From Escherichia coli (GTDB taxonomy: Bacteria; Pseudomonadota; Gammaproteobacteria; Enterobacterales; Enterobacteriaceae), in the NCBI RefSeq assembly GCF_030013595.1, contig NZ_CP122768.1: a stretch of DNA of 64,000 nucleotides; one strand, 5' to 3'. The notes beneath the pieces are model-generated. The model saw only the letters and a program-made list of their open reading frames with translations, was not told the DNA's origin and made no database searches. Shown here one piece after another: positions 3,201 through 38,868 of this stretch (positions are counted from its first letter, which is position 1; each line of letters starts with the position of its first letter). The position numbers and the translations under genes are program-made.

Positions 3201-5041
<1,841 letters not shown>

Positions 5042-27187: not shown

Positions 27188-27261
27188 TTCATCTTTAAAT
27201 CAACATATTAAAATTCATCAAATGGCATCCTTGCTAACCAACAATACAAAATAGGCAAAAA

Positions 27262-27298
27262 AATGCCCGCCCCGGCGATCCCAGAGCGGGCAGACAAA
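27262..27298 (-). terminator. Probable intrinsic terminator of the flgKL transcript
   Basis: GC-rich inverted repeat (gcccgc...gcgggc) followed by a T-run on the minus strand downstream of the flgL stop. Confidence 0.45.
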
Positions 27299-27333
27299 AC
27301 ATACCCAGTTTCATGATATGTTTTAAAGCGAGC

Positions 27334-28287
27334 TTATTTGTTGAGCTGGAACAGCGACAATCCCTGCATATCGGTAAATGCTTTATACGATGCCTGCAAT
27401 GCCGTTTGCTGCATGATGTAAGATGAAATAGTTGCATTCCAGTCCACATCAACCAGATCGCTCATCTGCTGCGTTTGCCCTAAAGCGCGATCGCTACCTA
27501 ATGAATCCAGCGACTCCAGTTCGTTCAGCTGCGTGCCTAATTCCGCGCGAATAGTCAGCACATTGTTCAGCGAGTTTTTCAGTCCGCGGTTGGTTTTATC
27601 CAGTGCCGCAGCGGCGGTTTCTTTATCCGCTTCGCTATCCGCGACCGGCGTTTTCAGGGCTGCGATGGCGCTATCCAGCATGGCAAAAAGATTGGTTTCA
27701 GAAGCGCTACCGTCTGGTTCCGCTACCGCGTTGCTGGTAATACTGTCGAAAATTTTGTCACCCGTGTGCCCTATCACCATCGAACGCGAAGCATCGACCT
27801 GTTGTTTAATACTTTCTGCTCCGCCAACATATTCGCCGTCTGCCTCACTAAACGGCGCAGTTTCTGTTTTATAACCGGCAAAAATGTAGCGCCCGTTACC
27901 GTCAGTGGTGTTCGCCAGATTCAGCAACTGGTCACGAAGCCCCTGAATATCCGTAGCCAGCGAGGCCCGGTCATCGTCACTCAAGGTGCCATTGCTGGCG
28001 TAGACAATTTTTTCCTGAGCATTCTGGATAGCGGTGGTGACCTGGCTAAGTACACTCTCTTCCAGTGACACTTTTTGAGTGGCGAAAGTACGCGCCAGCG
28101 TGTACTGGCTGTTTTGCGCCTGTGCCTGGGAGAGAACAACAGCTTGTGATGCAGCAATGGGATCATCTGAAGGGTTAACGACTCGCTTACCCGTCGACAT
28201 CTGTTCACCGTACTTCATCCATTCTGCCTGAGAATTGGTGATGCCGCGCATGTTTTGCTGGTACATCATCTGGGTACTGAAACGCAT
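27334..28287 (-). CDS. flgL: Flagellar hook-associated protein 3 (hook-filament junction)
   Basis: ORF 27334..28287 (-), 317 aa; flagellin-like N- and C-terminal helical segments. Confidence 0.95.
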   Translation of the reverse strand: MRFSTQMMYQQNMRGITNSQAEWMKYGEQMSTGKRVVNPSDDPIAASQAVVLSQAQAQNSQYTLARTFATQKVSLEESVLSQVTTAIQNAQEKIVYASNGTLSDDDRASLATDIQGLRDQLLNLANTTDGNGRYIFAGYKTETAPFSEADGEYVGGAESIKQQVDASRSMVIGHTGDKIFDSITSNAVAEPDGSASETNLFAMLDSAIAALKTPVADSEADKETAAAALDKTNRGLKNSLNNVLTIRAELGTQLNELESLDSLGSDRALGQTQQMSDLVDVDWNATISSYIMQQTALQASYKAFTDMQGLSLFQLNK

Positions 28288-28298
28288 TTTATCTCCCC

Positions 28299-29942
28299 TT
28301 AGCGAATGTTAATCAGCGCATCAAAAATCGCGTTTGCCGTCTGCAGAACCTGCGCATTCGCGAGGTAATACTGCTGAAAACGTTGCAGATTTCCGTACTC
28401 CTCATCGAGATTGACACCGGAAATCGACTGCTGCTGATTGGAAAGCTGCGTCACCACATTACCTTGCGTGGTGCTACTGGTTTTCAACGTCGCGGTTTTA
28501 TTACCGATATCACTCACTAACGAGGCATAAGCGTCGTTAAAGGATTTCGCACCACCCACCGTTTTACTGTTGCTTTGCAGATCCAGCAGGGCCTGACCGT
28601 TGCGGTTGTCGCTATCACCCGCATCTTCTGCGCTCGCCATGGCGATTTTCGCTTCGTCGGTGATTAATACATCCATGTTGACGATGGCGTCACTTACCGG
28701 TTTCAGCGTGAAGCTGTCGTTAACGGCAGGCGTTCCTGTAAACGTCAACTCCAGACCATCAAATGCCACTTTACCGTTGGCATCCGGCGTCACCGTAAAA
28801 GTGGTATTGCTGGCAAGGCGGGTGACCTGCCACTGATTATTATCGAACGAGATTTTGTAATCTGTCGCCAGTACCGCGGAGGCATCAGTTACCGTTGCAC
28901 CGATCGCAACGTCACCATTGTTTTTCGTGTTTTGCAGTACCGCGGGCTTACCGATAGCAAAGAAATCTTCACCGGCATCGCCGTTAGCATCAAATCCGGC
29001 TTTGTGTTGGGTGTTGAAAGCCTCGGCAAATGCCAGCGCCAGTTGTCCAAGCGTATTACGCGTCTGGTCCAGATCCTGAGAACGGAATGTCAGAATGCCA
29101 CCCAGCGACCCGGTATTCAGTAATTTTTCAGGGATCTCAATATTGCCTGCCGTCCCATCAACATAAGCGACAGTCGTACGAGAAGGGTCGGCGCTGGAAG
29201 GAACTGCCGCAAGTTGCCGCGCCGTACTTCCCTGAACCAGTGAGTAGCCATTGGCCATCGTGATATTATAAGTGCCACCATCCTGAACGCTGACTTCTAC
29301 GCCAACAATCTGGTTTAATTCGCTCACCAGTTGATCGCGTTGATCCAGCAGATTGTTAGGTGACGCCCCTGCCCCCACGCCTGTCAGGCGGGAGATTTGA
29401 TCGTTCAGGCTGGCGATTTGTTTAGCGTAATTGTTGATCTGATCAACGCTGGCACCTATCGCGATATTGACCTGTTTGTCCTGGTCGCGCAGATATTGAT
29501 CGGTGGTTTTAAACTGATTCACCAACCCTTCTGATTTCCCAATCAGCGCCTGGCGCGCTGCCGGGTCTTCCGCGTTACTCACCAGCGTTTGCAGGCTGGT
29601 GAAGAAATCCTGCATCTGTGTTGCCAGCGAAGAGGTACTGGTGGAGAGCATATTGTCGATTTTCGACATCTGCTCATAGCGGGCAGTCAGGCCGCTACTT
29701 TGCGTCTGCGCCGCACGTAACTGGTTGGTAATAAACGCATCATACTCACGCTGCACACCAGAAACGTAGACGCCATTGCCAACCCAGCCGCCAGCGCCCA
29801 ACGTGCTATTGGCCTGCGTCATAATAGTGGTTTGGCGGGTATATCCGGCAACGTTATAGCTGGAGATATTATTACTTGCCGTATTTAACGCCGCCTGGGC
29901 CGCGTTCAGTCCGCTCATGGCGTTATTGATCAAGCTGGACAT
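28299..29942 (-). CDS. flgK: Flagellar hook-associated protein 1
   Basis: ORF 28299..29942 (-), 547 aa; MSSLINNAMSGLNAAQAALNTASNNISSYNVAGYTRQ N-terminus. Confidence 0.95.
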   Translation of the reverse strand: MSSLINNAMSGLNAAQAALNTASNNISSYNVAGYTRQTTIMTQANSTLGAGGWVGNGVYVSGVQREYDAFITNQLRAAQTQSSGLTARYEQMSKIDNMLSTSTSSLATQMQDFFTSLQTLVSNAEDPAARQALIGKSEGLVNQFKTTDQYLRDQDKQVNIAIGASVDQINNYAKQIASLNDQISRLTGVGAGASPNNLLDQRDQLVSELNQIVGVEVSVQDGGTYNITMANGYSLVQGSTARQLAAVPSSADPSRTTVAYVDGTAGNIEIPEKLLNTGSLGGILTFRSQDLDQTRNTLGQLALAFAEAFNTQHKAGFDANGDAGEDFFAIGKPAVLQNTKNNGDVAIGATVTDASAVLATDYKISFDNNQWQVTRLASNTTFTVTPDANGKVAFDGLELTFTGTPAVNDSFTLKPVSDAIVNMDVLITDEAKIAMASAEDAGDSDNRNGQALLDLQSNSKTVGGAKSFNDAYASLVSDIGNKTATLKTSSTTQGNVVTQLSNQQQSISGVNLDEEYGNLQRFQQYYLANAQVLQTANAIFDALINIR

Positions 29943-29975
29943 GGAGGTTCCTTATAAGCCTTCAATTACAGAGTA

Positions 29976-30002
29976 TTATCGGCAGCGACCCGCCGGACTT
30001 GA
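29976..30002 (-). promoter_or_regulatory. Sigma28 (FliA) class-3 promoter for flgKL
   Basis: Minus strand reads TCAAGTCC-N11-GCCGATAA, matching the TAAAGTTT-N11-GCCGATAA consensus, in the flgJ-flgK intergenic gap. Confidence 0.6.
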
Positions 30003-32808: not shown

Positions 32809-33609
<801 letters not shown>

Positions 33610-33727
33610 TTAGTGACAAGCAGAGCAGAAGCACGCGACGGTGCGAATTTCCCCTCACCCTAACCTCTCCCAAAATGGGCGAGAGAATAGTCCGCGCGCT
33701 TTTATTGCAATGTCATCAATCGTTTAA

Positions 33728-35732: not shown

Positions 35733-36428
35733 TTAAATTATCTGCCGTACTTCGTCGAGGGTGGTGGTGCCGTAAGTGCCGAGATCCAGCGTATTACCGT
35801 TGTTGCCGCGGATCACACCCTGCACCAGAGCAAACTGCAGCGGCTGGGCAACCAGTTGTGTACCACCGTTACTGGCGCTAATCGCTACGTTGTAAGAACC
35901 GTTCGGCGCAGTGCTGCCGTCAGTCAACGTACCGTCCCAGGTGAAACTGTGGACTCCGGCAGTCAGTTCACCGATATCAATGGTACGGACAACCGCACCG
36001 TTTTTATCGGTGATGGTGGCCGTAACTTTGTCTGCCGCCTGTTGCAGCTCAACACCAAACGGCGTGGTCGTGGTCACAGCCCCTTCTTCACTGCCGGTTC
36101 CCGCAAGAACAGTGGTGCCGGGGATCATCACGCCGTGACCGATCAGGTTACTGGCCTGTAACGACTGGCTGTTATCAATCTGTCCGGAAATAGATCCGAG
36201 CGTGGTATTGAGTTTTTCAATCCCGCTGACCGTGCTGATTTGAGCCAATTGCGACGTCAGCTCGTTGTTTTCCATTGGATTGGTCGGGTCCTGGTTTTTC
36301 AGCTGCGCCACCAGCAAAGTCAGAAAACTGCTTTGTAAATCTGCGGCGTTGCTGCCCGTGAGCGAACTACTACTGGTGGTGCTGACGCCGGTATTTGTCG
36401 GATCGGTGGTGGTTACCGCAATGGACAT
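35733..36428 (-). CDS. flgD: Flagellar hook capping (scaffold) protein
   Basis: ORF 35733..36428 (-), 231 aa; Ser/Thr-rich N-terminus. Confidence 0.95.
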   Translation of the reverse strand: MSIAVTTTDPTNTGVSTTSSSSLTGSNAADLQSSFLTLLVAQLKNQDPTNPMENNELTSQLAQISTVSGIEKLNTTLGSISGQIDNSQSLQASNLIGHGVMIPGTTVLAGTGSEEGAVTTTTPFGVELQQAADKVTATITDKNGAVVRTIDIGELTAGVHSFTWDGTLTDGSTAPNGSYNVAISASNGGTQLVAQPLQFALVQGVIRGNNGNTLDLGTYGTTTLDEVRQII

Positions 36429-37264: not shown

Positions 37265-37418
37265 ATCTCCTCCGCAGGTATCAAAATTCTGCCATCAGCT
37301 TAAATGCCTTTACGCGCGCGTTATCGGCGGAATAAACGCAAAATGGGTCGCTATTTATGCCGTTGATGGTCATTGCGGACAGGTACAATTCACGTTGTAG
37401 AAATGGCAGGGGGCGAAA
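37265..37418. promoter_or_regulatory. Divergent flgA / flgB class-2 flagellar promoter region
   Basis: 154-bp gap between divergent flgB (-) and flgA (+); in E. coli these are FlhD4C2-dependent class-2 promoters. Binding sites not resolved by eye. Confidence 0.5.
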
Positions 37419-38078
37419 ATGCTGGCAATAAAACGTAGCGTGGCGATCATCGCGATACTGTTCAGTCCGTTAAGTGCGGCGAGCAATCTCACATCGCAAT
37501 TGCACACCTTTTTTAGCGCCCAGCTCGCGGGGGTAAGTGATGAGGTTCGTGTTTCTATTCGTACAGCGCCCAATCTACTACCGCCGTGCGAGCAGCCATT
37601 GCTTTCGATGAGCAATAATTCCCGCCTGTGGGGCAATGTGAATGTGTTGGCACGCTGCGGTAACGACAAACGATATTTACAGGTTAATGTGCAGGCCACA
37701 GGAAATTATGTGGTTGCCGCAATGCCCATTGTGCGGGGAGGAAAGCTGGAAGCTGGCAATGTCAAACTGAAACGCGGACGGCTGGATACCCTGCCACCGC
37801 GTACGGTGCTGGATATCAATCAACTTGTTGATGCCATTAGCCTGCGCGATCTATCACCCGATCAACCTATCCAGTTAACCCAGTTTCGCCAGGCATGGCG
37901 GGTAAAAGCGGGACAACGCGTCAATGTGATCGCCAGCGGTGATGGGTTTAGCGCCAACGCTGAAGGTCAGGCGCTGAACAATGCAGCCGTCGCACAGAAT
38001 GCGCGGGTGCGCATGGTATCTGGACAGGTAGTCAGCGGCGTTGTTGATGCAGATGGGAATATTCTTATAAACCTGTAA
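37419..38078 (+). CDS. flgA: Flagellar P-ring assembly chaperone
   Basis: ORF 37419..38078 (+), 219 aa; signal peptide. Confidence 0.93.
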   Translation: MLAIKRSVAIIAILFSPLSAASNLTSQLHTFFSAQLAGVSDEVRVSIRTAPNLLPPCEQPLLSMSNNSRLWGNVNVLARCGNDKRYLQVNVQATGNYVVAAMPIVRGGKLEAGNVKLKRGRLDTLPPRTVLDINQLVDAISLRDLSPDQPIQLTQFRQAWRVKAGQRVNVIASGDGFSANAEGQALNNAAVAQNARVRMVSGQVVSGVVDADGNILINL

Positions 38079-38083
38079 GCTGT

Positions 38084-38110
38084 TAAAGATTACCCGTCCC
38101 TTGCCGATAA
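38084..38110 (+). promoter_or_regulatory. Sigma28 (FliA) class-3 promoter for flgMN
   Basis: TAAAGATT-N11-GCCGATAA, near-perfect match to the sigma28 consensus, about 45 nt upstream of the flgM start. Confidence 0.7.
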
Positions 38111-38153
38111 ATAAGCAACATATGATAAAAGCGCCCTCAATGAGGAATAAACC

Positions 38154-38447
38154 ATGAGTATTGATCGCACTTCGCCTCTGAAGCCCGTAAGCACCGTTCA
38201 ACCGCGCGAAACCACTGACGCGCCGGTAACGAACACCCGGGCGGCAAAAACAACCGCCTCCACCAGCACCAGTGTGACGTTAAGCGACGCGCAAGCAAAA
38301 CTGATGCAACCCGGCAGCAGTGATATCAATCTTGAACGTGTCGAAGCGTTAAAACTGGCGATTCGTAACGGTGAACTAAAAATGGACACCGGCAAAATTG
38401 CCGATGCGCTGATCAACGAAGCGCAGCAAGACTTGCAGAGTAACTGA
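38154..38447 (+). CDS. flgM: Anti-sigma28 factor
   Basis: ORF 38154..38447 (+), 97 aa; [25 protein letters not shown]... Confidence 0.95.
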
Positions 38448-38451
38448 TCGT

Positions 38452-38868
38452 ATGACGCGTCTTGCAGAGATCCTCGACCAGATGTCCGCTGTGCTTAACG
38501 ATCTCAAAACGGTAATGGATCAAGAGCAGCAACATCTCTCTATGGGGCAGATCAACGGCAGCCAGTTGCAATGGATTACAGAACAAAAAAGCTCTCTGCT
38601 GGCGACGCTGGATTACCTCGAACAGTTACGCAGGAAAGAACCCAATTCAGCAAATAGCGTTGATATTAGTCAACGCTGGCAGGAAATTACTGTGAAAACG
38701 CAGCAACTACGCCAAATGAATCAACATAACGGCTGGTTACTGGAAGGACAGATTGAGCGCAATCAACAGGCGCTGGAAATGTTGAAACCGCATCAGGAAC
38801 CGACGCTATATGGAGCGAACGGTCAGACCTCAACAACCCATCGCGGCGGTAAAAAGATTTCGATCTGA
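38452..38868 (+). CDS. flgN: Flagellar export chaperone for FlgK/FlgL
   Basis: ORF 38452..38868 (+), 138 aa; immediately downstream of flgM. Confidence 0.93.
   Translation: MTRLAEILDQMSAVLNDLKTVMDQEQQHLSMGQINGSQLQWITEQKSSLLATLDYLEQLRRKEPNSANSVDISQRWQEITVKTQQLRQMNQHNGWLLEGQIERNQQALEMLKPHQEPTLYGANGQTSTTHRGGKKISI

Follow-up and report, generated by a model that had tools for sequence, protein, structure and literature searches.

The window, a 64,000-nucleotide stretch of Escherichia coli DNA, carries the flagellar flg cluster in the orientation opposite to that of K-12, with flgA, flgM and flgN on the plus strand and flgB to flgL on the minus strand. Gene identities were taken from the ORF list and from the RefSeq annotation of E. 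coli HCP5S3_I2, a swine isolate to which the window was 100% identical over a 2-kb flgB-murJ test region. On the plus strand, the stop codon of flgA (TAA, 38076-38078) is followed by a gap of 75 nt and then by flgM (38154-38447, ATG at 38154) and flgN (38452-38868). On the minus strand, the stop codon of flgJ (TGA, 30010-30008) is followed by a gap of 65 nt and then by flgK (28299-29942, ATG at 29942) and flgL (27334-28287). Farther away (20947-22295, plus strand), yceF and rluC are separated by an annotated IS1397 transposase of the IS3 family, which has a programmed frameshift.

Each of the two gaps contains a motif resembling a σ28 (FliA) promoter. A previous sequence-only reading had placed these motifs at 38084-38110 (plus strand) and 29976-30002 (minus strand), and direct read-out of the sequence confirmed both. 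The motif upstream of flgM, under which flgM and flgN lie, consists of a −35 element TAAAGATT (38084-38091, 7/8 identical to the consensus TAAAGTTT), an 11-nt spacer (38092-38102) that is conserved in length and free in sequence, and a −10 element GCCGATAA (38103-38110, 8/8). The motif upstream of flgK, under which flgK and flgL lie, consists of a −35 element TCAAGTCC (reading 30002-29995, 5/8 identical to TAAAGTTT), an 11-nt spacer (29994-29984) and a −10 element that is again GCCGATAA (reading 29983-29976, 8/8). Both motifs are intergenic and lie on the gene strand, facing the gene. Both −35 boxes begin 5 nt past the upstream stop codon, the distance from the end of the −10 element to the ATG is 43 nt for flgM and 33 nt for flgK, and the CGA core of the −10 element is intact at both sites. 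The description of the motifs as near-consensus thus held for the flgM site (1/16 mismatches) and for the flgK −10 element, but not for the flgK −35 element, which has 3/8 mismatches.

The flgKL unit ends in a small RNA. FlgO was located at 27257-27334 (minus strand), in the flgL 3' UTR, by mapping the K-12 annotation b4826 to the window with 4 mismatches, and a terminator scan identified its intrinsic terminator at 27292-27264 (minus strand). Two of the four differences from K-12 fall in this terminator hairpin. FlgO is known to be processed from the flgL 3' UTR and to be σ28-dependent (Melamed, 2023).

The 28-mers of both sites were identical to those of K-12, and the surrounding 88-nt contexts differed by 1 nt each. 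The same 28-mers are listed verbatim as FliA ChIP-seq sites in K-12, with fold-above-threshold (FAT) values of 48 for flgMN and 47 for flgKL (Fitzgerald, Bonocora & Wade, 2014, PLoS Genet, Table 2). These peaks are as strong as those of tar or fliD, and no further FliA ChIP-seq site was reported in the K-12 interval that matches the window (Fitzgerald et al., 2014). Genomic SELEX with reconstituted Eσ28 alone gave an intensity of 15.0 for the flgA-flgM spacer and 27.2 for the flgJ-flgK spacer, the latter being among the strongest peaks in the set (Shimada, 2017). Sequence and position were read directly in this strain, and holoenzyme binding in vivo and in vitro is published for the identical K-12 sequence. 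The occupancy, binding and expression data used throughout come from K-12 or Salmonella, and they were carried over to this strain through the identical 28-mers.

To assess conservation, we used a sample of 80 Enterobacterales loci centred on flgB, ranging from Escherichia to Pantoea, Yersinia, Dickeya and Edwardsiella. flgM and flgK were located in each locus, and the 150 nt upstream of each start codon were scored. A σ28 motif with the exact 11-nt spacing was found upstream of flgM in 76 of 79 cases and upstream of flgK in 68 of 69 cases, and of the roughly 40,000 positions in a locus it was usually the one with the best or second-best score. The four upstream regions without the motif had maxima of −2.5 to 2.9 bits, which is the chance level in 150 nt. 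Column information was calculated from the unique aligned sequences (72 for flgM, 66 for flgK). The −35 box carried 1.56 bits per column for flgM and 1.68 for flgK, and the −10 box 1.75 and 1.79, versus 0.36 and 0.16 in the spacer and 0.35-0.57 and 0.20-0.36 in the flanks. TAAAG was invariant in the 76 flgM promoters, and GCCGAT was nearly invariant in the flgM −10 element among the 72 unique sequences. Depending on the taxon, the motif stood anywhere between 30 and 118 nt before the ATG, and yet it stayed intact. At flgM, E. coli and E. albertii have 43 nt between the −10 element and the ATG; Citrobacter, Salmonella and Enterobacter have about 57-63 nt, and Yersinia has up to 118 nt. The class-3 flgM leader of Escherichia is therefore unusually short.

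The conservation at flgK included its departure from the consensus. At position 2 of the flgK −35 box, C (TCAAG) was present in 65 of 68 sequences and T (TTAAG) in the other three, and the consensus A occurred in none. The box reads TCAAGTCC or TCAAGTCT in E. coli, E. albertii and Citrobacter, and TCAAGTTT in most genera. A TCAAG −35 is also found at the FliA-bound fliL site (Fitzgerald et al., 2014). From this pattern, we tentatively suggest that selection may hold the flgK −35 box below consensus through a gene-specific C at position 2, although we consider this unlikely on balance. If so, the C could tune the timing or strength of flgKL relative to other class-3 promoters, or it could have a second function. 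In the published E. coli data, occupancy of the flgK site nevertheless equals that of the flgM site in vivo, and its binding in vitro is stronger. The position-2 pattern is visible in published alignments; as far as we found, the literature does not discuss it as a selected feature.

We conclude that the two sites are PflgMN and PflgKL, the canonical class-3 promoters recognised by FliA (σ28) in the flg cluster of E. coli, each placed behind the final gene of a class-2 unit, and we place the probability of this reading at roughly 0.96. They are the K-12 promoters base for base; they are already known, and nothing about them is new. The sequence-only reading had called them expected biology, and they do correspond to documented K-12 FliA promoters.

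The same reading had proposed that flgMN and flgKL receive class-3 transcription on top of class-2 read-through. In K-12, ChIP-seq and RNA-seq back overlapping flgAMN and flgMN operons, and RT-PCR across flgJ-flgK showed additional transcription of flgKL from the class-2 flgB operon, which is FlhDC-dependent (Fitzgerald et al., 2014). According to the operon structure given in that study, the source of the read-through is the divergent flgA/flgB class-2 control region, located at 37265-37418 in the window. In a terminator scan, the gene strand of both gaps (38079-38153, plus strand; 30007-29943, minus strand) was free of terminator-like hairpins, which is consistent with class-2 read-through. 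On the class-3 side, FliA overexpression in an flhD deletion strain restores the expression of flgM and flgK (Fitzgerald et al., 2014), and deletion of fliA lowered flgM 6.9-fold, flgK 5.5-fold, flgL 4.9-fold and flgN 4.6-fold (Zhao, 2007). Taken together, the FliA ChIP-seq, SELEX, fliA-deletion and flgJ-flgK RT-PCR data support the proposal.

How much the class-3 promoters contribute is a separate matter. They might be genuine FliA-binding promoters with a negligible role in expression, dispensable for ordinary assembly of the flagellum and kept mainly as a back-up for filament repair or swarming or as docking sites for σ28. RNA-seq in a fliA deletion strain showed modest changes that were not significant (flgM from 451 to 318, flgK from 318 to 138), and for dual-regulated genes fliA deletion had little or no effect, versus more than 100-fold for flhDC deletion (Fitzgerald et al., 2014). 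Under the conditions of that study, the class-2 promoters give most of the transcription. According to work cited there, the class-3 promoters of Salmonella matter for swarming and for the repair of sheared filaments. The 5-7-fold decreases recorded under different conditions (Zhao, 2007) and the σ28 dependence of FlgO levels (Melamed, 2023) speak against a negligible role, and purifying selection on the two boxes throughout the order implies that they contribute to fitness. The two fliA-deletion studies differ in effect size, so the class-3 contribution is condition-dependent, and we infer its size in this strain from these K-12 data. We regard a negligible role as a rather unlikely but serious alternative. 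It refines the assignment of the sites as PflgMN and PflgKL with respect to quantity and timing and does not contradict it.

Probable start sites were deduced from published data. An flgM reporter described as "+1 to 105" relative to the transcription start ends after codon 23 (Romilly et al., 2020). This construct implies a 5' UTR of 36 nt and a class-3 start at the A at 38118 (plus strand), 8 nt past the −10 octamer. In the alignment of 72 unique sequences, the sole strongly conserved column downstream of the flgM −10 element is an A (1.6 bits) at this same position. Fitzgerald et al. (bioRxiv 188474) reported that, in dRNA-seq, most classical flagellar FliA promoters start at a distance of 18-22 bp from the centre of the motif. 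Mapped via K-12, this range corresponds to 38114-38118 for flgM, which includes 38118, and to 29969-29965 for flgK. We infer the exact start nucleotides in this strain from these sources. The predicted flgK start region is 29965-29969 (minus strand), 7-11 nt past the −10 element, and conservation 8-10 nt past the flgK octamer is weak. The measured start of the aer promoter lies 6 bp past the octamer (Hollands, 2009). The sequence-only reading had expected starts 7-10 nt downstream of the −10 elements; for flgM, the distance of 8 nt agrees indirectly, via the construct, and for flgK the position is predicted from the general spacing alone.

One published 5' end lies elsewhere. Cho (2014) reported a weak 5' end (21 reads) at window position 38088 (plus strand), within the flgM −35 box and not downstream of the −10 element. 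Its sequence ends in ...CTGTTAAAG, about 30 nt upstream of the expected σ28 start, and processing of the flgAMN transcript or weak initiation by σ70 could account for it. We judged it uninformative for σ28 starts because the dataset contains no other flg start sites and, according to Fitzgerald et al. (2014), failed to detect the promoters of fliA and fliC. No entry in the Cappable-seq and SMRT-Cappable-seq supplements matched the flgM or flgK sites by coordinate or gene name.

This 5' end bears on a second alternative, in which the boxes are conserved because of some other signal that overlaps them, for instance the C-terminal codons of flgA or flgJ, a σ70 promoter or a transcription factor site. 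Besides the 5' end within the flgM −35 box, this explanation draws on the start of the −35 boxes just 5 nt past the upstream stop codons, and on the observation that TAAAGA can mimic a σ70 −10 element (Hollands, 2009). Nevertheless, both boxes lie outside coding sequence, and the conserved columns are exactly the σ28 −35 pentamer and −10 octamer at 11-nt spacing, while the flanks and the spacer drift. The motif also remains intact at every distance from the ATG noted above, and CRP showed no clear binding to the flgMN or flgKL fragments (Hollands, 2009). We consider an overlapping signal very improbable.

We then compared the two σ28 promoters with chance expectation. A consensus scan of the window allowing up to 3 mismatches returned 3 matches versus 0.55 expected, a number reached in 2 of 100 shuffles; the matches were the flgM site, the flgK site and one site within flgD. 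The octamer GCCGATAA occurred 9 times in the window versus 1.8 expected. The pattern T[AC]AAG-N14-GCCGATAA matched twice versus 0.01 expected, a comparison that gives no independent statistical support, as the pattern was set after both sites were known. An independent position weight matrix (PWM) was built from the 23 strong FliA ChIP-seq sites (FAT > 4) of Fitzgerald et al. (2014), with flgMN and flgKL left out. The flgM site, with 27.4 bits, ranked first in the window; the highest score among 200 random windows was 22.1. The flgK site scored 16.2 bits and ranked fifth, within the range of the random-window maxima (mean 14.7, SD 1.9). The PWM scan that the sequence-only reading had proposed as a check therefore set flgM above all 200 random windows and left flgK inside the chance range. 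On sequence alone, only flgM exceeds chance, and flgK would not stand out; that the flgK site is non-random is shown by where it lies, by its occupancy in published data and by its conservation across the order.

Three other sites in the window scored at least as high as flgK: 4267-4294 (minus strand) in ycfL, 14406-14433 (plus strand) in fabF and 36003-36030 (minus strand) in flgD. The flgD site is in sense orientation, the fabF site is antisense, and the ycfL site lies at the gene end, 20 nt upstream of lpoB. In each, the −10 octamer is imperfect (GCCGATGA, GCCGTTAA or ACCGATAA), and all three are identical in K-12 yet absent from the 52 FliA ChIP-seq peaks (Fitzgerald et al., 2014). The flgD site was rejected as a promoter: it has C at position 1 of the −35 box, its −10 element is ACCGATAA, and it has no ChIP peak despite its identity in K-12. 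The aer213 substitution, which is equivalent to this C, lowers aer promoter activity about 10-fold (Hollands, 2009). A degenerate consensus might be matched by chance at flgK, or at both sites, with all flgKL and flgMN transcription being class-2. This idea could appeal to the flgK score, to these equal or better decoys and to the small fliA-deletion effect in RNA-seq, but it is effectively refuted by the strong FliA ChIP-seq peaks at both sites and at none of the decoys, the selection of both spacers by Eσ28 alone, the order-wide conservation of both boxes, whose spacing is fixed while spacers and flanks vary freely, and the return of expression upon FliA overexpression in the flhD deletion strain.

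Two further candidates were rejected. The octamer GCCGATAA at 37321-37328 (minus strand), upstream of flgB, is without TAAAG at −35, where it reads CCCATTTT. It directly adjoins an inverted repeat recognised by eye, ATAAATAGCG ... GCGTTTATT (about 37359-37331), which we take to be a putative FlhDC-box-like element. Used as a negative control for conservation, this octamer was present in 2 of the 80 loci, only in E. coli and E. albertii. The other candidate came from an RpoF SELEX peak of Shimada that maps to the K-12 flgF-flgG spacer; no σ28-like motif was found in this spacer, in the window or in K-12. The spacer itself (33592-33727) is 136 nt long here and carries a repeat-like insert, GGGAGAGG...GGGTGAGGGG, and that of K-12 is 171 nt long with a REP-type palindrome.

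With the two sites read as PflgMN and PflgKL, established knowledge and the evidence above combine into the following scheme. RNA polymerase with σ28 recognises the T(A/C)AAG −35 and the composite −10 GCCGATAA, 11 nt apart, and would initiate about 8 nt downstream of the −10 element. During early assembly, flgM and flgN as well as flgK and flgL are made through read-through from the FlhDC-dependent flgA and flgB promoters, and FlgM keeps σ28 inactive. Once the hook-basal body is complete, FlgM is exported and σ28 released, and the internal promoters then transcribe flgMN and flgKL independently of FlhDC. The flgMN output supplies FlgM, as negative feedback on σ28, and the chaperone FlgN; the flgKL output supplies the hook-filament junction proteins and, from the 3' UTR, the FlgO sRNA. 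The promoters couple late flagellar gene expression to the completion of the hook-basal body.

The value of the result lies in confirmation: two textbook regulatory signals were correctly picked from raw sequence. It also carries a lesson of method. By PWM score alone, the real flgK promoter could not be told from decoys lying within genes of the window; what distinguished it was its position, its perfect −10 octamer and its conservation across species.

Among known systems, K-12 is the closest. Its PflgMN and PflgKL have the same 28-nt sequences, the same positions relative to flgA/flgM and flgJ/flgK and the same orientation, and the promoters show no difference. Compared with the consensus σ28 promoter TAAAGTTT-N11-GCCGATAA represented by tar, fliC, tsr and aer (Hollands, 2009; Koo, 2009), both sites share the two blocks, the 11-nt spacer and the composite −10 element with its CGA core, and consensus promoters start 6-9 nt past the octamer. 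In the flgK −35 box, in contrast to TAAAGTTT, position 2 is C and positions 7-8 are CC. The aer promoter needs an activator; the flgM and flgK sites need none, because Eσ28 alone binds both spacers and no CRP binding was seen. The class-3 flgM and flgK promoters of Salmonella enterica (Kutsukake & Ide, 1995; Wozniak & Hughes, 2008; Wozniak et al., 2010, as cited by Fitzgerald et al., 2014, and Hollands, 2009) share the boxes and the dual class-2/class-3 architecture, and the flgM promoter of the Salmonella diarizonae locus in our sample (L015) reads TAAAGATT-N11-GCCGATGA.
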